DNA of 64,000 bases. Origin: Escherichia phage vB_EcoM_KWBSE43-6. A program made the translations under genes and the position numbers. Below, piece after piece: positions 5,537 to 63,378 of the stretch; positions within the stretch are counted from its first letter, which is position 1, and every line of letters begins with the position of its first letter. The stretch is from the sequence record NC_048186.1. One strand, given 5' to 3'. Under the pieces are notes generated by a model. The model ran no database searches. It saw nothing but the letters and a program-made list of their open reading frames with translations, and was not told the DNA's origin.

Positions 5537-5601
5537 GATGTTGCTCCAAAGAAAAGGGATAGAGCAATAATACCCTATCCCTGTTTATTGAAGAATTAAG
5601 T

Positions 5602-8083: not shown

Positions 8084-8163
8084 AATTTTGATCCTTAGCG
8101 ATAAAAAGGGAACGAGCCAAATATAAGCCCATTCCCTTTATTGAAGAAATTGGTATTGCTCAG

Positions 8164-9766: not shown

Positions 9767-9970
9767 TCATTTCCTTAAAAATAATTTATAGACAACAGGT
9801 ATCAAGAACGATAAGAAGCCGAACCAGTAAACCACATTCATGGTTTTCTTTTCTGCTTCTGATAGATCAATGAAACCATAATGATATACTATCATGGTTA
9901 ATAATGAGGCTAAACAAGTGATCGCCCCGACCAATAAAATTGCATCCAACCACTTGTTGTTCATCTTCAT
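9767..9970 (-). CDS. small membrane protein (two predicted TM helices)
   Basis: 67-aa ORF, hydrophobic segments. Confidence 0.5.
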   Translation of the reverse strand: MKMNNKWLDAILLVGAITCLASLLTMIVYHYGFIDLSEAEKKTMNVVYWFGFLSFLIPVVYKLFLRK

Positions 9971-10851
9971 TTCCTCAACATCATAGCCAGCACGTTAGAA
10001 CTTTTGGACAGCTGTTTCTTTTCATCAGCAGTCTTCTTGACAGTCGGGCGGCGGGTAGCCTTTTCCGGTACGCGATGCGCCAGCGGGTCTGAACCACCAA
10101 CTTCGCGTGTCATTGGATGGTCTTCGCAATACTTATAGAATTCTTTGAAGACGAACCCAGCGTCACGGACTTCATTGATGATCATGTGATGAATGGCATT
10201 GCCAATGACCCACAGCGGTGCGTCGAATGGCAATTGGGCAACTTCGCTGCCAACGCCGTTCTTTTTGTAGAGGACGTCCTGACCGCTGTATGAATCTACA
10301 ACGACATCCCAGCCCGCCGCCGCCATTTCAGATTTAGACTTTTCAAATTCTTTCTGATAAGACTCATTCCGAGTCCAGCCCGAATCCCCGGCTTCTTTAC
10401 CAGAACGCCCACGGATACGAGCATCATACTGATAACGATCCGGATACGTGAAGTACAACAGCGCCAGTTGCTCAATAGGATAATTGGCAAACAGCCATTC
10501 TGGACGCCATTTATCAGACAGCATCAACGGTTCACCCTCACAGACGAGCGTATATCCCGCGCTGAGATGTTCTTTGACCAGTTCGCGGGCGATATCACCA
10601 GAACCTGTCGCGGCATGGATAGCGTCCATCGAGGTCCACGAGGCAAGACCGGATTTGTTTGACGCAGTATACTGGCCGACAAACATTAATTTCAGTTCAT
10701 CAAAGGCCAGGCCAAACAGGCGCGTTTTATCGCCGATGGTATAAGTGACCTCGCGCGGCTCGAGGCGAGTACGCAGCCATTCTATGAACTGTACCACACG
10801 AGTGCCCTTGCCCGTGCCGCTTGTGCCTTTGATTACAATCAGTTTTGACAT
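9967..10851 (-). CDS. P-loop kinase; candidate 5-hydroxymethyluracil DNA kinase
   Basis: 294-aa ORF; Walker A GTSGTGKGT near N-terminus; ATG at 10851 confirmed. Confidence 0.55.
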   Translation of the reverse strand: MSKLIVIKGTSGTGKGTRVVQFIEWLRTRLEPREVTYTIGDKTRLFGLAFDELKLMFVGQYTASNKSGLASWTSMDAIHAATGSGDIARELVKEHLSAGYTLVCEGEPLMLSDKWRPEWLFANYPIEQLALLYFTYPDRYQYDARIRGRSGKEAGDSGWTRNESYQKEFEKSKSEMAAAGWDVVVDSYSGQDVLYKKNGVGSEVAQLPFDAPLWVIGNAIHHMIINEVRDAGFVFKEFYKYCEDHPMTREVGGSDPLAHRVPEKATRRPTVKKTADEKKQLSKSSNVLAMMLRK

Positions 10852-11222
10852 TAGTTGTCATCCTCAATACGCCATGATACACCGCCAAGCCAAGGCGACC
10901 AGAATACAGCGACCTTCTGGCGACCATATTCTTCGAATTTCACTTTATAACGGTCATCGAAGTCATAGAAAATTTCATCTTCTTCAGAACGTAATAAAGA
11001 ATCTACTGCTAATGAATGAAATTTCTGAGCTGCTCCAACGGGAGTAGGAGTTTCCATCCCCCTGATATAATTGTTTACAGCCGAAACGATCGGATGTACG
11101 ATGCTTTTCGCGGAAACTACAGGCTGAGTTGTAACTTTCAATTCGTTAGACACTTCAGACTCCTTGACGGACAAATTGGTAATGTGCAACCAGGCGGTCA
11201 ACGACTTCTGTAAAATTTTCAC
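10851..11222 (-). CDS. hypothetical protein (start uncertain)
   Basis: 123-aa ORF overlapping upstream gene by about 68 nt. Confidence 0.4.
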   Translation of the reverse strand: MKILQKSLTAWLHITNLSVKESEVSNELKVTTQPVVSAKSIVHPIVSAVNNYIRGMETPTPVGAAQKFHSLAVDSLLRSEEDEIFYDFDDRYKVKFEEYGRQKVAVFWSPWLGGVSWRIEDDN

Positions 11223-11946
11223 GCAGATAGTCGAAGTGGTTGCGGCCTTCTACTGGTTTAACATATATCATATTTTCTGAATCCGAAAGATCCAGTTTTT
11301 CATAATTCCCCTGAGGAACGAAGATGCTGAAAACATTGTTCCAGATGCACGGGTCGACATATTTCGGATTGTCGTCAATCAAAACATCGCCAGCAACCAT
11401 GTGCTTTTCATCCGTGCTGATGAAGCCATTGAAGATGTTCGGGAACTTGCCATACACGAACTGACGTTTGCTGCGTTCGTGCTCGGGTTCACATTTGGTG
11501 ACAGCAACAAATTCCACCATTTCAAACTTCATGAGCAGCGCATCATGCAAGTTGTTCAAGAACTCTACCGCACCGGGCAACGGCTGCATACGGGAGTACA
11601 GATCAGGTTGGCGCCAAAAGTCCATCGGGTCGCGTCCGTTTGACATATAATGGGTCTTACCGCCGATACTGACATATGAATGTGACCATGCCGGATGAGC
11701 ACGTTCACGCATCAGGATTGCCAAATCACCCGCATGGTTCATATAACATTGCTTGGTGATCGGCTGGAATTTAGCAGGGCCAACAATCCCGTCCGGGAGA
11801 CTTGCTTGGGCTTCCAGGTTTCCGTCATTAAACCATTTGACCCAAGGCGATAGACTATCGACGATTGTCAGATCAACGTCCACCAAAACCCGGTACAGGC
11901 CTCCGACCTTTGAGTTCATATCGTATAGGCAAGTCAGGTTGTTCAT
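11155..11946 (-). CDS. HAD-superfamily hydrolase-like protein (possible nucleotidase/phosphatase)
   Basis: 263-aa ORF; DxDxT-type motif VDVDLTIVD near N-terminus. Confidence 0.5.
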   Translation of the reverse strand: MNNLTCLYDMNSKVGGLYRVLVDVDLTIVDSLSPWVKWFNDGNLEAQASLPDGIVGPAKFQPITKQCYMNHAGDLAILMRERAHPAWSHSYVSIGGKTHYMSNGRDPMDFWRQPDLYSRMQPLPGAVEFLNNLHDALLMKFEMVEFVAVTKCEPEHERSKRQFVYGKFPNIFNGFISTDEKHMVAGDVLIDDNPKYVDPCIWNNVFSIFVPQGNYEKLDLSDSENMIYVKPVEGRNHFDYLRENFTEVVDRLVAHYQFVRQGV

Positions 11947-12302
11947 TTATCTTCCTCCACTTTATCATATCCTGTCGCTTTACAACCATCAGCCTGGCAG
12001 TCGCCATACAGGACAACCATGGAGTCTTTTACGAAAGTAGAACAATGATACAGCTCCGTCGTTGGATCGCTGTCATCGTAATTGCAAACGGTCTGGATCG
12101 GGCCGGGAGTAGTACCCTGGAGGGCGGCATGTGCTTTAACCATGTCATCCATTTTGGTCTGAGCCTGGTCTTGGGTGAAGTCCGGCCCGCTGAGATCTGG
12201 TGTGTCCAAGAGAGCAGAGCAAGCAGACAGAGACACTGACAGAGTGAACGCCAGCATGATTTTGTAGAACAGAACGGTTTTATTGAGTTTCATCTTAATC
12301 AC
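11943..12302 (-). CDS. putative lipoprotein
   Basis: 119-aa ORF; signal peptide followed by lipobox-like LSAC. Confidence 0.55.
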   Translation of the reverse strand: MIKMKLNKTVLFYKIMLAFTLSVSLSACSALLDTPDLSGPDFTQDQAQTKMDDMVKAHAALQGTTPGPIQTVCNYDDSDPTTELYHCSTFVKDSMVVLYGDCQADGCKATGYDKVEEDK

Positions 12303-12359
12303 CTATTTTTGTCAAAGGGAAACAACAAGGGGAATTATATCCCCCTGTCGGTTATTGAA

Positions 12360-12647
12360 TTAGTGAGAAGCCAAAGAATTATTGTGGTCTACCATAAATT
12401 GGTAGTTGCCACCGAATTTTTTGACCGCATCAATCTCGTGTTGTCCCCATTGATATTGGTAACGCTGGAACAATTCTCCTGGCACAACTTCAATCTCAAA
12501 CTCAAAGAAGCAGTCTTGGCAGAGAACTTTCCCTTCTTCAGTGAAAGATTTTGCTATCAAAAGCGTCACGTCCGGGCCGGGTCTTCCAAATATATACAAA
12601 TATGGATTCCCCAAAACCACTTCATTACCACGTTGATCAACAATCAT
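12360..12647 (-). CDS. hypothetical protein
   Basis: 95-aa ORF directly downstream of DNA polymerase. Confidence 0.45.
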   Translation of the reverse strand: MIVDQRGNEVVLGNPYLYIFGRPGPDVTLLIAKSFTEEGKVLCQDCFFEFEIEVVPGELFQRYQYQWGQHEIDAVKKFGGNYQFMVDHNNSLASH

Positions 12648-12650
12648 TTT

Positions 12651-15647
12651 CTACCCCTTTTTACCCATCATCGCTAATAAATTGACCCGACGTTTGTGAG
12701 ACCAGCCAACGACCGTCAGTATAGACTGGATCGGTTCGATGAATGACTTCTCAAATGCCGTGTTGTAATCCACCCATTTCGCCATATCCAATTCTTCGGG
12801 GAAGAACTCTGGATAGGCGAAATAGTTCTGACCGAATGGATTACCAGCTTTCAGCAGAACAATGTTGACTTTATCGCCAGATTCTATTAACGGTAAATCG
12901 AGTTCTTCATGTTTCTCCACCAGGCGATTGTAGCCGACGCATGCCTTTGCAGCAAAGTGCGCCCCAGAGATAAAGGATCCGTCAGGAGCCACGCACTTCT
13001 CAATATCAGAGACACCTGATGCCTTCGCAATATCATCGACGCTCAGTTTCATGTACTCATCTTTATACGTCTTGATGAGGTCTTGGACTTCGCTTTCCGT
13101 GCCTAAAAGAATGCGCTCATAGCACTTGATGAGACGTTCACGACACCATTCTGGCGTTGTTGATTTACGCGCCTCAAGACCTTTGAATTTGATCTTCGGC
13201 TTCTCATATTTGATGCCTTCACTGTCATAGACAGCCATGCAATACATCTTCTTGGCACGCCATACTGCAGCAGACGCAATGACTTCACGCTCCCAAACCA
13301 TGCGCTGTTCGTAGCCATTCATCGTATTGCAGAGCATCTGCGCCCATTCATTGGTCTTGGGCTGGTAATTCTCCTTGATCCATTGGTCGATATTATCAAC
13401 GAGTTTGTGGTGATCAGTTTCTCCTTCCCACAATTTCTTGACCAGGCGCTCGATACAGATATAGTTCGAGTCCGTGTCCCCCGCGATAACATAATCCAGG
13501 CCGCTGGTCCCGCACAATCCGTTAAGATAATCGTCAGTGTAACGTTTGTTCCACTTATTGATCAACTGCCCTGAAGTTGTAATCGCTTCCGCAATGTTGA
13601 GGTTAAAGTATTCTTTAAACCAGACGTTAGAGATTGCACCATAACCTGCGTTCATCAAGATCTTCAGACCTTGCTGTAACGTGTCTTGGGCAACGCCAAG
13701 GTCTTCCCATTTGTGCATCACTTCGGACAGGTGATCAAGGTCGATGTTTTTGTGCTCTTCATACCAGTCTTGGTCAAAGTAGCGGGATTTCATCGCGGAT
13801 TCAAGGTGGAAGTCACCCTTAGACATTTCCTTACACCAGCCCGCCCATTGCTCATACTTCAGACCCTTGGCCTTCTCACCTTTACGGTCAGCGTAAATGC
13901 CGCGCATGATCTCAGAGAGGAAGGACATTTTCTCATTACTGAAGAATTGAACGTTTGGTGTAAACGACACGTTGTAACGCACGAGGGTTTCAAACCGGAA
14001 TTCACCCAGGGCAACCAGTTCATCTACAACCTGTAGGCGTTCATCAATCGCGCGGAGCAGTTTGTCATGAAGATTCTTCATATGGCGACGTTTATGCATC
14101 GGCGTCGTCATATCATTCATCTTGACAGCAAGCTCTTCACACATGGCTTCAATGATTTCACGACGGGTGTGTTTATCACCGATAATCGTTTCAGGCCCGA
14201 GGTTGTACTGCTGAATGATGTGTGGGTACAGGGAGTTCAAGTCCTCTGAGAAGACCCAATAATAGATCCCTGGCGCCACTTCCATGACATATGCGCCTTC
14301 AAAGTTTGTCGGCCCATCATAGACGCGCTGGACTTTGGGAACAATCCCCTTTTCGTACAGCTTGTAATAACACATGGCCAACCATGGCGCTACCGTGCCC
14401 AAACCGTCTTCAAAGTTAGATTTGGTGCGATACGCCAGGACAAACATCAGCTGAATGAGACGCAGTTTTTGTTCCAGACGCCAGACGAGTTTGACGTCCT
14501 TAATACCATACCGGGTGTGCTTACAATAATCGTTGAAATACAGATCAAACAGTGATTTGCTCTCACTGTAATCCATCTTCTTCTCACCGAGTTCGCAATA
14601 TGCAATCCAGTCCAAAGAATATCTTTCACGTGTGGTGTACGTGTGCTTCTTATAGACCTGCAGGTAATCCAACATAGGACAACCAACGAACTGATAAGTC
14701 GTGATGTCACCTTTCTTATCCCGGATGATGCGCTTTTTTATCTTACCCCAAGGACTCAGGCGATTAGTGTCGGCTTCACCCAATACTTGCATACAGCGTT
14801 CTACCAGATACGGGCTATCGAATTGCTCAATGTTCCAGCCTGTCCAACCGTCAAAGGCCCGCGCTTCCCAGTAATCAACAAATGACCGCAGCAGATCTTG
14901 TTCGGTGGTGAACTCTTGATATTCTACTTCCAGACCACCGATCTCTTCATCATTTGGGTCATATTTGAACTTATGGCGATCCTTAGAACACGGCATCCCC
15001 CAGACCATATATTTGTTATTGGTCAGATCCTGGAGCTGAATGAGCGTAATCGGGAATGCCGCATTCATGTTCTGGGTGATCTTACCATTTGCGTCAATAA
15101 TGGGGAACTGGTCGGTCACGTTGTTGGAGATAAAGGAGCCGGGGAAATGCTCGCGGACGAACGCATGGTTGGCCAAGATACGTTTATGGAACTGACGGAC
15201 GCGCGCCGCGCTCCCTTTGAACGTCTGTAGTTCTATCGTCGGGTGCGGGAATGGACCTTTAGTCATCTGCCCATCGACCCATCCTGCAGAGAACACTTCG
15301 ATATCAAGATTGGCGATATGAATGTTGTTGTAATCTGGCTGAATCGTACCGGGGAAACTGTGGGCGATGAATTGGTAGGCATAGTCAGTCTGACCGTATA
15401 TCGCCGCGCCTTCTACATCCTTGTATTCCTCCATATAGTTGTCGGCGTCACGCATAGACGCAAACTTTTTAGAAATCAGAGGTTCGTTCAACAGGCCGAC
15501 TTTTTCAACATTAGAATAATCAGCCGTGGGTAAATACAGAGTGGGTTCGAATTTCTTTTTGAGCATGCGACGGTTGCCCATGTCATCTGCAATTCGAACT
15601 AACAGGTCGTTGCCTTGCCGGGCGACGTTAGTATAGAAAACAGTCAT
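12651..15647 (-). CDS. DNA polymerase, family B (T4 gp43-like)
   Basis: N-terminus MTVFYTNVARQGNDLLVRIADD aligns with T4 gp43 as recalled; motifs DIEV (exo), DLNSLYPHI, KILMNAGYG, YVIAGDTDS; true start ATG at 15647 with GGAGA SD (ORF track extends to 15830). Confidence 0.9.
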   Translation of the reverse strand: MTVFYTNVARQGNDLLVRIADDMGNRRMLKKKFEPTLYLPTADYSNVEKVGLLNEPLISKKFASMRDADNYMEEYKDVEGAAIYGQTDYAYQFIAHSFPGTIQPDYNNIHIANLDIEVFSAGWVDGQMTKGPFPHPTIELQTFKGSAARVRQFHKRILANHAFVREHFPGSFISNNVTDQFPIIDANGKITQNMNAAFPITLIQLQDLTNNKYMVWGMPCSKDRHKFKYDPNDEEIGGLEVEYQEFTTEQDLLRSFVDYWEARAFDGWTGWNIEQFDSPYLVERCMQVLGEADTNRLSPWGKIKKRIIRDKKGDITTYQFVGCPMLDYLQVYKKHTYTTRERYSLDWIAYCELGEKKMDYSESKSLFDLYFNDYCKHTRYGIKDVKLVWRLEQKLRLIQLMFVLAYRTKSNFEDGLGTVAPWLAMCYYKLYEKGIVPKVQRVYDGPTNFEGAYVMEVAPGIYYWVFSEDLNSLYPHIIQQYNLGPETIIGDKHTRREIIEAMCEELAVKMNDMTTPMHKRRHMKNLHDKLLRAIDERLQVVDELVALGEFRFETLVRYNVSFTPNVQFFSNEKMSFLSEIMRGIYADRKGEKAKGLKYEQWAGWCKEMSKGDFHLESAMKSRYFDQDWYEEHKNIDLDHLSEVMHKWEDLGVAQDTLQQGLKILMNAGYGAISNVWFKEYFNLNIAEAITTSGQLINKWNKRYTDDYLNGLCGTSGLDYVIAGDTDSNYICIERLVKKLWEGETDHHKLVDNIDQWIKENYQPKTNEWAQMLCNTMNGYEQRMVWEREVIASAAVWRAKKMYCMAVYDSEGIKYEKPKIKFKGLEARKSTTPEWCRERLIKCYERILLGTESEVQDLIKTYKDEYMKLSVDDIAKASGVSDIEKCVAPDGSFISGAHFAAKACVGYNRLVEKHEELDLPLIESGDKVNIVLLKAGNPFGQNYFAYPEFFPEELDMAKWVDYNTAFEKSFIEPIQSILTVVGWSHKRRVNLLAMMGKKG

Positions 15648-15725
15648 TGTATTCTCCAGGTTATCCGTGCCGTTAGCACGTTCCCATAATTTAGCCGAGG
15701 AGGGTTCATTGACCAAGGAGTTTAT

Positions 15726-16298
15726 ATGGCAATCCCCTTGGTAAGCATGATTCCTGGCGCTTTGAAACAGCTCTGGAATCTGGGAACTGATTTGATTCAA
15801 TATAAGCGGGAAATTGTAAGCGCCAAGCACGATGTCAAGTTAGAAGCGATCAAATCGTCTTCCGACTGGGAACTATCTAAGATCACAGAAGTTGGTGGTT
15901 CTTGGAAAGATGAATTCTGGACTATCGTTCTTGCTATCCCCGCGATCCTCGTTATGTTAGCTCCAGTTGTGGAACTGCTTTTGTTCCCCGGTGAATATCA
16001 TAAAGGGGATTTCATCAAAGCAGTAGTCGGTGGCATGCAAGCCCTGGATACCGCGCCTGATTGGTATACTGCTTCATTATTGACAGCAATTAGTGCATCA
16101 TTCGGTATCAAAGGCTACAACCACTTTAAAAGCAACAGCCGCAAGGCGCAAGCTGTCGATGCCCTTAAACAATTCGGCGTCAAAGTGGTTAGCAAAGATC
16201 CCACTGTTGTTACTCAGTCGGGTTCTCCCGATCTTGAGTCTGCTCCCCCAGCTGGGTCTACTGCGACCTCTGGTGCGTGGCCTGATCTGAAGAAATAA
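15726..16298 (+). CDS. membrane protein, hypothetical
   Basis: 190-aa ORF with central TM segment; divergent from polymerase gene. Confidence 0.5.
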   Translation: MAIPLVSMIPGALKQLWNLGTDLIQYKREIVSAKHDVKLEAIKSSSDWELSKITEVGGSWKDEFWTIVLAIPAILVMLAPVVELLLFPGEYHKGDFIKAVVGGMQALDTAPDWYTASLLTAISASFGIKGYNHFKSNSRKAQAVDALKQFGVKVVSKDPTVVTQSGSPDLESAPPAGSTATSGAWPDLKK

Positions 16299-16551: not shown

Positions 16552-16645
16552 AATATTTATTGAAAAACTTTACTTCTTCAATAACTGACGTATACTTCAA
16601 ATTGTAGTACGAACAAACAACAAATTGAAGAGAAGGAAATACATC

Positions 16646-21348: not shown

Positions 21349-21415
21349 TATTTCCTCAAATCAATGTTAGGGGTTTAACGGTTAAATTTTAAACCCCTTT
21401 GTTTGATTGAACAAA

Positions 21416-23501: not shown

Positions 23502-23692
23502 TATTTATTCGCTTCTATGGCTCGAAGTTGCTTCTCAGCGTCTTCTTTGGATTCATGTGTTCCCAAAACCTTTGTTTTGGTATGGTCCAACACAACCCAA
23601 TGATCACCACGCTTTTCAACAAACTCAACAATTTCTTTGTTGTCAGTCGCAAGACCATCCCATTCAGTTAAGAACTCACCGAACGTTTTCAT
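23501..23692 (-). CDS. small hypothetical protein embedded in tRNA cluster
   Basis: ORF track 23501..23719 (non-ATG start); likely start MMKTFGEF at 23692; protein-like composition. Confidence 0.5.
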   Translation of the reverse strand: MKTFGEFLTEWDGLATDNKEIVEFVEKRGDHWVVLDHTKTKVLGTHESKEDAEKQLRAIEANK

Positions 23693-23919
23693 CATACTCA
23701 CCAATCGTTTATTGAACAACTGGTTTATTTAGGTGCTCCCGAGGCGGTATTTTAATCCCGCGATCCCATCTCGCCTGCCGTAGACCAGAGCTTGTTGGCA
23801 GTCCAACAAATTTGGCGGGGTCTGAGGATTTTCACCTCACCTGCTGGATTGGCCTCCAGCCGTTCTCTCTGGGGACTCGCCGTCCGGACAGCTATCCCTT
23901 AAACTATCGCCCCTTAATA

Positions 23920-27232: not shown

Positions 27233-27539
27233 AATAAGATCCTCTTGTAGAATTGAAATAAACGCCATCATTATAATAGAACGATTGTTATTGAATATTG
27301 GTCTCTAAATTACAGGAGTGTTTTATTAATAGGCAGAAACTACTTTTCTAACACATCTCTAGACTGTATGCTAACGCTGTGCCCTTCGAGTTGTGAGTGT
27401 CAACGAACAACGAGAAGCAGCCTCCCTGGCTGTGGAAGGGTGCCAGCCCGCACAGGGCGGTCTTACGAGCGAAGCGAGTTGATTAATATATTTGATAATA
27501 ACGCGCGCGAGAGTAAATTCCTTTCTCTGTCTTCAACAG

Positions 27540-34822: not shown

Positions 34823-37402
34823 ATGGCCAGAAACATAGAAGAAATTTTCGGTGGGGTAGTCGTAGCACCACACCAGATCCCGTTCACGTACACTTCAACA
34901 AACGGTGGGGAAACTTTTATATCTCTGCCATTTTATCCCATCACCGGGTTCGTTACTATCAACGGTGGTGTACAGGTCCCTCTTGACAATTTCGAAATAG
35001 ACGGAAACACATTAAATCTTGGTCGAGAACTGGATCCAAGTGATGTTGTGTTCTGTTTGTTCGATAAAATCATGTCACCTCAAGATGCCAGTAACAACGC
35101 AGTTCGAGTTTATAAATTCATCTCTGTTGGAGGAGAAACGGAATTCACTCCAGATTTTACGGCGTATGGTGTCCAATCTCTTTATATCAATGGGAAATAC
35201 CAAATAGCTGGTGAGGATTACACATATTCTAAGACAGATGGGAAAGTTTCTTTTACTACCCCATTAGTTACTGGAGTATGGGTTGCAGCTGAGATGAACA
35301 TAAAGCAAAATATCCCCGCTTTAGCTGGCAATAATGGCGCATCACAAATCGGAACAGAATCAGGGCAAAATGTTCAATTAGAACTCGATTCATTCCGTAA
35401 TTTGTTCGGGGAATATGGGTTTAGCATGATAGGGCAAACCACATATCAAGGATTGAGGAATTATAACGGCAATTCCAATTATATGATGATATATGGTAGA
35501 TCCTATCTTCTAGATGGTGGTCATGGTATATTTGATTTAGTTCCTGGCGGTAATGCCATGACAACCCCTGACGATGATTGTGTGCATATTCGAGATACGT
35601 TGGGGCGGTTATGGCGTCGTAGATTTGAAGACAATGTCATAAGAATGAGCTGGGCGGGTGCTAAAAACCAATTAGAAACATCATCACCACAAGATGATGC
35701 TTTCAGGAACTGCCTGCTTGCGGCCAAATCGTTGTCTCCTACTGGTTATCCACAATCAATCATTAAAGGATTAGACCGTGGTGTAGTTTATCTTGCAGAG
35801 CGGCATTATATCCGTTGTGGTAATTTCCCTGAATATATGGCGTGGAAATTGCCACCTACTGGTGGTGGTGACCGTTTTGGGCTGGATCTGCTGTGTGCAT
35901 TGGGAGAAGGGGCGGGGTTCTTTATCGTCCAAGCTAATAACCCATTGTTGCGCGTCCGGGTAGACAACACTGGTATCCCATTCAATGTTTCGAATTATAC
36001 TGATGCCCAACTTGTGAGTATAGTTGAGAACAATTATATCTTACGTTTGGAATCAATGGTGAACGCTCCGGAATTCGACGTTCATCCAGGTAATTATCCC
36101 GGTACTGTTCTTTACAGCACGGGTAAAAAGGATTATTCTGCAGTAACTGCACAATGGCCTGATTTGGTCCAAGTCTTACCGTCTATACAGAACGTCGGTA
36201 ACGCGGTGTTTAACATAAAAAACTGTGGTCGAGATTTTATGTTAACCAATACTGGGGCTGGGTTGGGTCATTTTCATTCCGTTTGGTCACAAAATAACCG
36301 ACTCCCTGGTTATATATCGAACTGCTATGATTTAACGATGACATATGAAGATTATGTCCCACACAACGAAACATCTGGTGGATTGATATTTAGTGAATGT
36401 GGCACTCTTTCTTTAGAAAATATTTTGATTGGCGCAGGTGGGGTAGGACATTTGTGTATATGGGATTGCCGTAACGTCCATATGAACCGTCATATCTCTA
36501 TATGTGGTAATACCACTTGGGCTGCATCTAACCAAGTAGATGATCTTTATGCTTTAGAAATTTGTAACTCCGAAGTTCATATGAGCGGCGTGCATGCTCA
36601 AAACTCTGGTAAATTCGCACGTGTAGGATTCAATTCACAATTAACGGTTGATCACCTTACTGCATGGGATGTTTCAAAATTATTCTTGATGACGAATGAT
36701 TTGACTAAATTGAAATATCGTGGGCAGCGGCAGGCTGTTACAGGGGACCCGAGCCGGATTTATGTGACATCAGGATTCGCTCAAAACCTTAACGCATCTC
36801 AGTTCGGTTGGGCTTGTGCTCCTGTAATAGAAATCGACAGCACAGTTAACGGTGATTTCAAATTTTATTGGAATTGCTGGACCAATAACGTTCATGCAGG
36901 GTATGGATCTGAATCTGAAGCAAATCTTGCTATTATTAGCGTGGCTTCTACAAGTTCTACAGGATCTGTGTCATTCGGCGAAGACGCTAAATTGGAAGGT
37001 AATACGACGAACTACGTCCTTCGTCTTGCAAACAAAAACCAATTGGGGAAAGTGCGCACTCGTCAAACATCTTTCTGTCGTGTACGTTATACCAATGACA
37101 ACTCACAGTCATCTTTTGCAATGCGCGAAGCTGCTCATGACAATGGAACTACTGTGATCCCTATTGACGGAACAACATACAGCTATCCGTACCGCAGACC
37201 TGCTAAATATTTCGTATCTTTAAACGTCCCTGCTGGTGGTGGTTCATGCTCAGTGACATTAAACGGTATGACGATTTTCCAAACTACGGTAGTCGGGACA
37301 CATGGTATAGTTATTGAAATGAAATACCAAGAAACCGTCGTGTTTACGTCATCCAACGTTACTGTATCGAATGCGCAGTGGCGTTATATTTTGGAGGAAT
37401 AA
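34823..37402 (+). CDS. tailspike protein (beta-helix)
   Basis: Start MARNIEEIFGG (ORF track start 34796 is an upstream extension); large beta-rich repetitive protein in tailspike array. Confidence 0.7.
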   Translation: MARNIEEIFGGVVVAPHQIPFTYTSTNGGETFISLPFYPITGFVTINGGVQVPLDNFEIDGNTLNLGRELDPSDVVFCLFDKIMSPQDASNNAVRVYKFISVGGETEFTPDFTAYGVQSLYINGKYQIAGEDYTYSKTDGKVSFTTPLVTGVWVAAEMNIKQNIPALAGNNGASQIGTESGQNVQLELDSFRNLFGEYGFSMIGQTTYQGLRNYNGNSNYMMIYGRSYLLDGGHGIFDLVPGGNAMTTPDDDCVHIRDTLGRLWRRRFEDNVIRMSWAGAKNQLETSSPQDDAFRNCLLAAKSLSPTGYPQSIIKGLDRGVVYLAERHYIRCGNFPEYMAWKLPPTGGGDRFGLDLLCALGEGAGFFIVQANNPLLRVRVDNTGIPFNVSNYTDAQLVSIVENNYILRLESMVNAPEFDVHPGNYPGTVLYSTGKKDYSAVTAQWPDLVQVLPSIQNVGNAVFNIKNCGRDFMLTNTGAGLGHFHSVWSQNNRLPGYISNCYDLTMTYEDYVPHNETSGGLIFSECGTLSLENILIGAGGVGHLCIWDCRNVHMNRHISICGNTTWAASNQVDDLYALEICNSEVHMSGVHAQNSGKFARVGFNSQLTVDHLTAWDVSKLFLMTNDLTKLKYRGQRQAVTGDPSRIYVTSGFAQNLNASQFGWACAPVIEIDSTVNGDFKFYWNCWTNNVHAGYGSESEANLAIISVASTSSTGSVSFGEDAKLEGNTTNYVLRLANKNQLGKVRTRQTSFCRVRYTNDNSQSSFAMREAAHDNGTTVIPIDGTTYSYPYRRPAKYFVSLNVPAGGGSCSVTLNGMTIFQTTVVGTHGIVIEMKYQETVVFTSSNVTVSNAQWRYILEE

Positions 37403-63320: not shown

Positions 63321-63378
63321 CTTTTCAATAAACAGATTTCAATTATTATTCACCCACAATCTAAACGAGGAACAACTG

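Follow-up and report, generated by a model that had tools for sequence, protein, structure and literature searches.

A conserved lipoprotein encoded beside the DNA polymerase gene of Ackermannviridae phages: a predicted periplasmic binder at the outer membrane and a candidate envelope-protection factor

We examined a small minus-strand gene in a stretch of 64,000 nucleotides (the window) from Escherichia phage vB_EcoM_KWBSE43-6 (NC_048186.1), in a region with 94-98% identity to Klebsiella phages of the genus Taipeivirus (Ackermannviridae). The gene codes for a conserved hypothetical lipoprotein that is already catalogued, since Pfam and PHROG families exist for it and the names given in GenBank and UniRef say lipoprotein. 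The product matches Pfam DUF7292 over its full length (175.3 bits, cut-off 27, E=4.6e-52) and, also over the full length, phrog_3748 (E=5.8e-52); both families carry no function assignment. It is 100% identical to the vB_EcoM_KWBSE43-6 protein (P0001) named 'Lipoprotein' in UniRef, and its GenBank homologues are called 'putative lipoprotein', 'lipoprotein' or 'conserved hypothetical lipoprotein' (e.g. in Maynard, May and maane; Vi01_193). As it stands, then, the finding is a re-identification. Comparative analysis suggests that the protein is exported, very probably lipidated and anchored under the outer membrane of the host, that its mature part looks like a binder rather than an enzyme, and that the most plausible function, judged by analogy, is superinfection exclusion in a broad sense.

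The open reading frame (ORF) reported by a first-pass annotation of the window, 11943..12302, begins with GTG and codes for 119 amino acids (aa). The gene is real; the start, however, likely lies nine bases further in. The GTG at 12302 falls within the Shine-Dalgarno sequence AGGTGA (12299..12304), which is itself inside AGGTGATTAAGATG, and the ATG at 12293, 5 bases 3' of AGGTGA, is the start of the coding sequence (CDS) of 351 nucleotides (nt) annotated in relatives. Because the GTG sits inside the ribosome-binding site (RBS) and the relatives have the 351-nt version, the product is most likely a protein of 116 aa (11943..12293). It begins with MKLNKTVLFYKIMLAFTLSVSLSAC/SALL, where Lys2 and Lys5 make up a basic n-region, followed by the uncharged core AFTLSVSLSA, the lipobox L-S-A-C ending in Cys25, and Ser at position +2.

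This arrangement, which the first-pass annotation had recognized as a signal peptide with an LSAC lipobox, conforms to a rule of the PROSITE PS51257 type (a Lys or Arg close to the N-terminus, then six residues without charge and a lipobox whose Cys is at position 15-35), and so do 23/23 close homologues. When this rule was applied to all six frames of the 64-kb window, nine ORFs were picked out; the DUF7292 ORF alone among them combines a canonical signal peptide with annotation as a gene. All 20/20 database homologues, and those from phiMAM1, Bue1 and Maynard, keep the lipobox Cys. Lipidation of the exported protein, and its anchoring under the outer membrane, are very probable as judged from the signal. 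In NCBIfam there were only sub-threshold matches to lipoprotein signal peptides, those of OsmB and LvhB7. According to the Lol sorting rule of Enterobacterales, a lipoprotein without Asp at +2 goes to the outer membrane; since this residue is Ser in the window protein, Ser or Ala in homologues, and never Asp, Lol-dependent sorting to the outer membrane is predicted, in agreement with the location first proposed. The two most distant members, P0025 and P0026, have a signal of the signal-peptidase-I type with no N-terminal Cys or lipobox, while retaining the synteny and the four other cysteines discussed below. Periplasmic export therefore appears to be the universal property of the family, and the lipid anchor a nearly universal one.

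Could the lipobox be fortuitous, with the N-terminus serving as an uncleaved membrane anchor, or the ORF not expressed at all? Several homologues do have a non-canonical Thr at lipobox position -3 (TTAC, TTSC). Against this stand the invariance of the Cys, the preservation of the signal architecture across more than 20 diverged sequences even though the sequence itself varies, purifying selection on the gene, its strong RBS, and four further conserved cysteines that make sense only outside the cytoplasm, so that we consider this explanation barely credible. The signal peptide is the variable part of the gene. In phage Menlow (locus L008, 11058-11390) the mature domain is identical to that of the window protein and is preceded by another, shorter signal peptide, of 18 residues as opposed to 24 (window segment 12219-12293, minus strand). 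The Menlow signal peptide is that of Kuttervirus Maynard (locus L005, 3001-3345), though the mature domains of these two are only ~58% identical, which suggests a recombination breakpoint inside the gene or an exchange of the signal-peptide module.

The mature protein is acidic (isoelectric point 4.1, 5 Pro per 92 residues). An AlphaFold2 model, built on an alignment of 20 sequences, is confident for residues 35-112 (predicted local distance difference test, pLDDT, 82-89), with pLDDT below 50 in the signal peptide, as expected of a cleaved segment. It predicts a helix (41-58) and four strands (66-73, 81-88, 93-100, 103-111) in a compact, cystatin-like domain of ~75 residues, one helix packed with a four-stranded sheet. 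Invariant cysteines occur at positions 70, 84, 99 and 104, and Cys70/Cys84 and Cys99/Cys104 are in-register cross-strand neighbours in two predicted hairpins (residue sums 154 and 203). Because these invariant pairs are in register, we infer two disulfides, 70/84 and 99/104. The tether between the lipidated Cys and the domain is ~11 residues long, which would keep the domain near the inner face of the outer membrane. Other invariant residues of DUF7292 are mostly structural, and none is catalytic-looking. Conserved stretches include KAHAAL in the helix and TGYDKVE in a strand. The predicted small α+β shape is a common one, typical of binders, inhibitors and immunity proteins, and we make no claim of homology on its account; the domain looks like a periplasmic binder rather than an enzyme. 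A sequence search of solved structures gave no match, Foldseek found nothing significant for the model, and the protein matched nothing in PADLOC and no known anti-defence family.

DUF7292 is confined to one phage family and is nearly universal in a large part of it. A tblastn search with the protein gave 276 phage records, all of Ackermannviridae type, from phages of Salmonella, Klebsiella, Escherichia, Dickeya, Serratia, Shigella, Erwinia and Enterobacter, and a search with the neighbouring DNA polymerase gave 277 records at 60% identity or more; the gene is therefore effectively a core gene of the Ackermannviridae that infect Enterobacterales. A profile search of 1.84 billion cluster representatives collected six clusters only, all from the same phage family, and found no bacterial relatives. 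The divergence of the lipoprotein follows that of the adjacent enzyme in four lineages (identity of 58 vs 70%, 47 vs 44%, 41 vs 45% and 31 vs 41%), and the ratio of nonsynonymous to synonymous substitution rates (dN/dS) of its gene is 0.05-0.24. The gene is inherited vertically under purifying selection and is not a fast-evolving accessory gene. Two records with unexpected host labels, OR844942.1 ('Enterococcus phage Efm 3-10') and MN871475.1 ('Pseudomonas phage Pa-sanjiao'), carry Kuttervirus-type copies with 61.5% identity to the window protein and 37.7% to P0026, the level seen in Salmonella Kuttervirus phages; it looks as though the labels are wrong or the records contaminated.

The genomic context is conserved as well. 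In every genus examined (Taipeivirus, Kuttervirus, Miltonvirus, Nezavisimistyvirus, and one metagenomic lineage) the order is DNA polymerase, 0-2 small variable ORFs, DUF7292, 0-1 small ORF, NT5C-type 5'(3')-deoxyribonucleotidase (dNMPase), DUF7254, and 5-hydroxymethyldeoxyuridine (5-hmdU) DNA kinase. The lipoprotein gene belongs to a long minus-strand block that extends from the DNA polymerase gene to rIIA, opposite to the structural genes, and is not adjacent to receptor-binding genes. From this order, early or middle expression is plausible.

What might an exported binder from a replication block do? In the mechanism that we put forward, the lipoprotein would be made alongside the replication genes, from a gene that follows that of DNA polymerase, has a promoter-like element to itself and is translationally coupled to that of the dNMPase. 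Its acidic domain, lipid-anchored under the outer membrane and held in the periplasm on the ~11-residue tether, would act as a non-enzymatic binder, as suggested by the lack of catalytic-looking residues and by a shape typical of stoichiometric binders and immunity proteins. The binder would protect the envelope of the infected cell by blocking a conserved penetration step of a second phage of Ackermannviridae type, the part that is blocked being either the lysozyme or hub of the tail or a conserved component of the outer membrane that faces the periplasm. Purifying selection, divergence that follows that of the adjacent enzyme, and core status together argue for a conserved target rather than a variable receptor. 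Phages of this type do encode a tail lysozyme, for which Menlow gp096 is the reference, and this enzyme could be the target of an inhibition similar to that by Sp of phage T4; the position of the block, from DNA polymerase to rIIA, mirrors the placement of imm and sp in T4. The reading towards which we lean, tentatively and with rather less than even confidence, is that of a periplasmic binder, tethered to the outer membrane, that protects the envelope of the infected cell in a manner near to T4 Sp/Imm and resembles Llp of phage T5 only in topology; exclusion or immunity as such, and the identity of the target, are speculative.

The more specific proposal of the first-pass annotation, that the protein masks a receptor, does not agree with this picture. 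Phages of this family recognise many O-antigens and capsules via exchangeable tailspikes, and their receptors and tailspikes vary widely, while the lipoprotein gene is a core gene fixed in the replication block; masking of any specific receptor is therefore unlikely.

Several observations weigh against the protective role proposed here. The protein has no sequence relation to Llp or Cor beyond the signal peptide, and none to Sp or Imm (hhalign probability of 0.9% with T4 Sp). Exclusion factors are usually accessory, and it would be unusual for one to be strictly core and slow to evolve; the timing of expression, too, is deduced from gene order only. In the tblastn search no copy was found in any Vibrio or Aeromonas phage record, and a profile search found no homologue at the corresponding loci of Vibrio phage D506 and Aeromonas phage phiA8-29 (Tedavirus), where the dNMPase gene directly follows the polymerase gene; the Aeromonas relative is annotated with a tail lysozyme.

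The same distribution fits another idea, namely that DUF7292 remodels or blocks an envelope machine of the host for the phage's own benefit and not for exclusion. Possible targets include the export of polysaccharide or lipopolysaccharide, porins, Tol-Pal, the sensing of envelope stress, and membrane-based systems of defence or abortive infection. Among the relatives examined, only phages of Enterobacterales and a metagenomic clade of unknown host have the gene, the Vibrio and Aeromonas ones lacking it, as would be expected if the target were specific to a host lineage, and strict core status fits a need for the protein in every infection. No target can be named from the data, though, and there is no match to PADLOC or to a known anti-defence family, and we think a host-directed role unlikely, if worth keeping in mind. 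A broader statement covers both kinds of target: DUF7292 may represent a new class of envelope-immunity proteins of phages, distinct in structure: a cystatin-like, disulfide-stapled, lipid-anchored binder, core to all Ackermannviridae that infect Enterobacterales, acting on a conserved penetration component of the incoming phage or on a conserved host envelope machine instead of masking a specific receptor, and expressed from a previously undescribed promoter class, TTCAATAA-N12-TATAAT. Taken as a whole, this statement is possible, and we would sooner expect some part of it to fail.

Two further explanations place the protein in lysis. It could regulate lysis of the phage's own host cell, as an antiholin-like factor or an inhibitor of endolysin or muramidase, comparable to RI of T4. 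The protein is predicted to be periplasmic, its gene shares a minus-strand block with rIIA and, judged by gene order, would be expressed early, inhibitors of wall enzymes and proteases (PepSY/YpeB and cystatins) are known in the fold class, and lysis control in this phage type, where no holin has been identified, is unexplained. On the other hand, neither Pfam nor PHROGs reveals a likeness to RI or to antiholins of any family, the endolysin genes are not in its neighbourhood, and a stable lipoprotein on a short outer-membrane tether would be badly placed to bind a holin in the inner membrane. All told, regulation of lysis seems quite improbable.

Still less probable, in our view, is that DUF7292 is the missing o-spanin, which would pair with a distant 'Rz-like' protein of the inner membrane and fuse the membranes at the last step of lysis. 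Known spanin genes come in pairs that are adjacent, overlapped or embedded; here the flanking genes are a 95-aa ORF or the polymerase on one side and, on the other, the dNMPase, to which the gene is coupled within the replication block, and in Menlow it is ~75 kb away from the only Rz-like candidate, gp133. It is true that the outer-membrane lipoprotein signal is as an o-spanin should have it, that no lipoprotein partner is annotated next to the 'Rz-like spanin' (phrog_3843), and that in 150 kb of Menlow only two annotated CDSs have a lipobox, DUF7292 and a 215-aa DUF7424 protein; the Menlow genome announcement identified neither a holin nor a reliable spanin complex. The mature domain, however, is folded and disulfide-stapled, with its 5 Pro in 92 residues, unlike the short, proline-rich and unstructured o-spanins, and the absence of a lipid anchor from P0025 and P0026 is incompatible with the spanin mechanism. 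A unimolecular spanin was also considered and ruled out, as there is no C-terminal transmembrane segment. In the Menlow segment 50001-100000 (locus L009) the 215-aa lipobox protein (LTSC/R, DUF7424) is encoded at 13387-14034 on the minus strand, beside a tail-completion gene, and on the plus strand a 228-aa secreted protein (34885-35571) overlaps the 'Rz-like spanin' of phrog_3843 (35568-35915).

Coordinates of the lipoprotein gene, of its parts and of its neighbours are collected in Table 1. The conserved genes downstream of the lipoprotein gene, from 9967 to 11946, read as a module for thymidine hypermodification and nucleotide metabolism. A role of DUF7292 in hypermodification, which the nearby 5-hmdU DNA kinase might bring to mind, is ruled out because the protein is exported. 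The kinase itself is frequently mis-annotated as 'guanylate kinase'. The ATGA overlap points to translational coupling between the lipoprotein and dNMPase genes. Upstream, the 95-aa ORF is shared by the window and KP6 (88% identity) but missing from UPM 2146, Menlow, Maynard, phiMAM1 and Bue1. Neither Pfam nor PHROGs has a match for it, and it has the look of a small accessory or mobile gene. The polymerase ORF as called mechanically (12651-15830, minus strand) begins with GTG and has 1059 aa; since relatives annotate 998 aa (2997 nt), its true start is probably at ~15647.

Table 1. The DUF7292 lipoprotein gene and surrounding features (positions in the window)
Feature	Position	Strand	Basis
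Family-B DNA polymerase, upstream neighbour, 998 aa as in relatives	12651..15647	-	Pfam DNA_pol_B_exo1 and DNA_pol_B; 99.5-99.9% identical to Taipeivirus polymerases
Variable 95-aa ORF between polymerase and lipoprotein genes, outside the conserved unit	12360..12647	-	Comparison with relatives
Promoter-like element TTCAATAA-N12-TATAAT, directly 5' of lipoprotein gene	12334..12359	-	Motif scan
Hairpin with GC stem and TATAAT in the loop, between upstream gene and lipoprotein gene; overlaps promoter-like element	12323..12350	-	Terminator-like scan
Shine-Dalgarno AGGTGA, strong RBS, 5 nt 5' of ATG	12299..12304	-	Sequence; RBS annotated at the same place in Menlow
DUF7292 lipoprotein precursor CDS, 116 aa (most likely extent), ATG start, TGA stop at 11943-11945	11943..12293	-	ORF; KP6 and UPM 2146 annotation; Pfam; PHROG
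Putative signal peptide, residues 1-24, MKLNKTVLFYKIMLAFTLSVSLSA	12222..12293	-	Rule-based check
Lipobox L22-S23-A24-C25; Cys25 codon TGC at 12219-12221	12219..12230	-	Sequence; Cys invariant in alignment
Predicted mature protein after Cys25: tether of ~11 residues (26-36), then folded domain	11946..12218	-	AlphaFold2 model
ATGA overlap of lipoprotein stop and dNMPase start	11943..11946	-	Sequence; identical junction in Menlow, overlapping ones in Maynard and Bue1
NT5C-type 5'(3')-deoxyribonucleotidase (dNMPase), downstream neighbour, 263 aa	11155..11946	-	Pfam NT5C E=8.7e-9; same annotation in relatives
DUF7254 and 5-hmdU DNA kinase, beyond the dNMPase gene	10851-11159, 9967-10851	-	Pfam HMUD2 E=3.9e-138 for the kinase

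The promoter-like element in front of the lipoprotein gene is one of a set. The pattern TTCAAT-N14-TAWAAT, with one mismatch or none, has 8 matches in the window compared to 1.42 expected, and 0/100 shuffles reached 8. The sites are at 5567-5592, 8120-8145, 12334-12359, 21386-21411, 23691-23716 and 27270-27295 on the minus strand, which thus has 6/8 of them, and at 16577-16602 and 63324-63349 on the plus strand. Each of the three exact matches is a short way 5' of an RBS and a start codon, and TTCAATA is kept upstream of the lipoprotein gene in four genera. We suggest that TTCAAT(AA)-N14-TAWAAT may be a previously undescribed class of Ackermannviridae promoters. The spacing is shorter than in a sigma-70 promoter, and the layout recalls T4 middle promoters; two of the sites match positions annotated as terminators in Menlow.

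The hairpin that overlaps this element is likewise conserved. The 69-nt intergenic stretch has a minimum free energy of -20.7 kcal/mol (z=-3.0), and a hairpin occurs at the same place in four genera, Kuttervirus, Miltonvirus and Nezavisimistyvirus in addition to the window (relatives' positions: ~2954-2973 in L005, ~2879-2899 in L003, ~2871-2895 in L004), with stems that differ in sequence by compensatory changes and with a TATAAT-like hexamer in the loop (TATAAT, TATACT or GATAAT). No clean U-tract follows it, and it may be a weak terminator or attenuator, or an element of RNA stability. A terminator or attenuator after the polymerase gene, combined with a phage-specific promoter, would be consistent with early or middle expression of the lipoprotein.

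The function of this gene would be practically useful to know. Ackermannviridae phages, such as Vi01, CBA120 and the Klebsiella Taipeiviruses, find wide use in biocontrol and in therapy cocktails, and if a core gene changes the envelope of each cell that is infected, interference between members of a cocktail could depend on it. If DUF7292 is indeed an exclusion or immunity factor, it also points to a conserved, as yet unknown, step in the way these phages cross the envelope. Our searches of the literature on DUF7292, on lipoproteins, superinfection and transcriptomics in Ackermannviridae, and a review of the family found no functional or transcript data.

The comparison suggested by the first-pass annotation was with Llp of T5 and Cor-type proteins, and kinship with either of them is not borne out. 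Only columns of the signal peptide and lipobox align: hhalign matched 10 columns with T5 Llp, all in this part (probability 13.6%), and 19 columns with T1 Cor, all in the signal peptide, while Pfam and PHROGs return only DUF7292 and phrog_3748. A tblastn search with Llp gave 34 records, from Escherichia and Salmonella phages only, with T5 and its close relatives among those listed. In T5, llp adjoins the receptor-binding gene, and Llp blocks FhuA. The DUF7292 gene, in every genus examined, has genes of polymerase and NT5C dNMPase as neighbours, in phages with polysaccharide receptors, and its mature domain is unrelated to that of Llp. What the two have in common is of a general kind: like Llp, whose properties, including binding to the plug of its specific receptor FhuA, have been described (PMC9586334), the DUF7292 protein is predicted to be a small phage-encoded lipoprotein at the outer membrane, facing the periplasm, stabilised by disulfides, and made before lysis. 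The Cor proteins of T1, phi80, N15 and HK022 are also small phage lipoproteins implicated in exclusion; however, their mature domains are unrelated to DUF7292 and differ in size, and cor of T1 is at the end of the tail gene cluster, where the DUF7292 gene is not.

The colicin M immunity protein Cmi (PDB structure: 2xgl) and other cystatin-like or PepSY-like periplasmic binders resemble DUF7292 only in having a common small fold; there is no detectable sequence relation between Cmi and DUF7292, and Foldseek gave nothing significant. Cmi, moreover, is anchored in the inner membrane by a transmembrane helix. A 'superinfection exclusion' CDS annotated in Menlow was considered as a competing exclusion gene and set aside as being of the P22 gp17 type, which is interpreted in the literature as a counter-exclusion factor.

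The better analogy, a positional and topological one only, is with Sp and Imm of T4. These are small envelope proteins encoded within replication clusters, and Sp is periplasmic, as the DUF7292 protein is predicted to be. The order in T4 is DNA polymerase (43), imm.1, imm, dCMP hydroxymethylase (42), with sp between genes 41 and 61; in the window it is polymerase, small ORF, lipoprotein, dNMPase, and further on the 5-hmdU DNA kinase. The proteins themselves differ: Sp is soluble and all-helical and Imm resides in the inner membrane, neither being a lipoprotein or similar in sequence to DUF7292, which has a predicted α+β fold. Should exclusion or immunity prove to be the role of DUF7292, the family would join Llp/Cor and Sp/Imm as a third solution, unrelated in structure to either.

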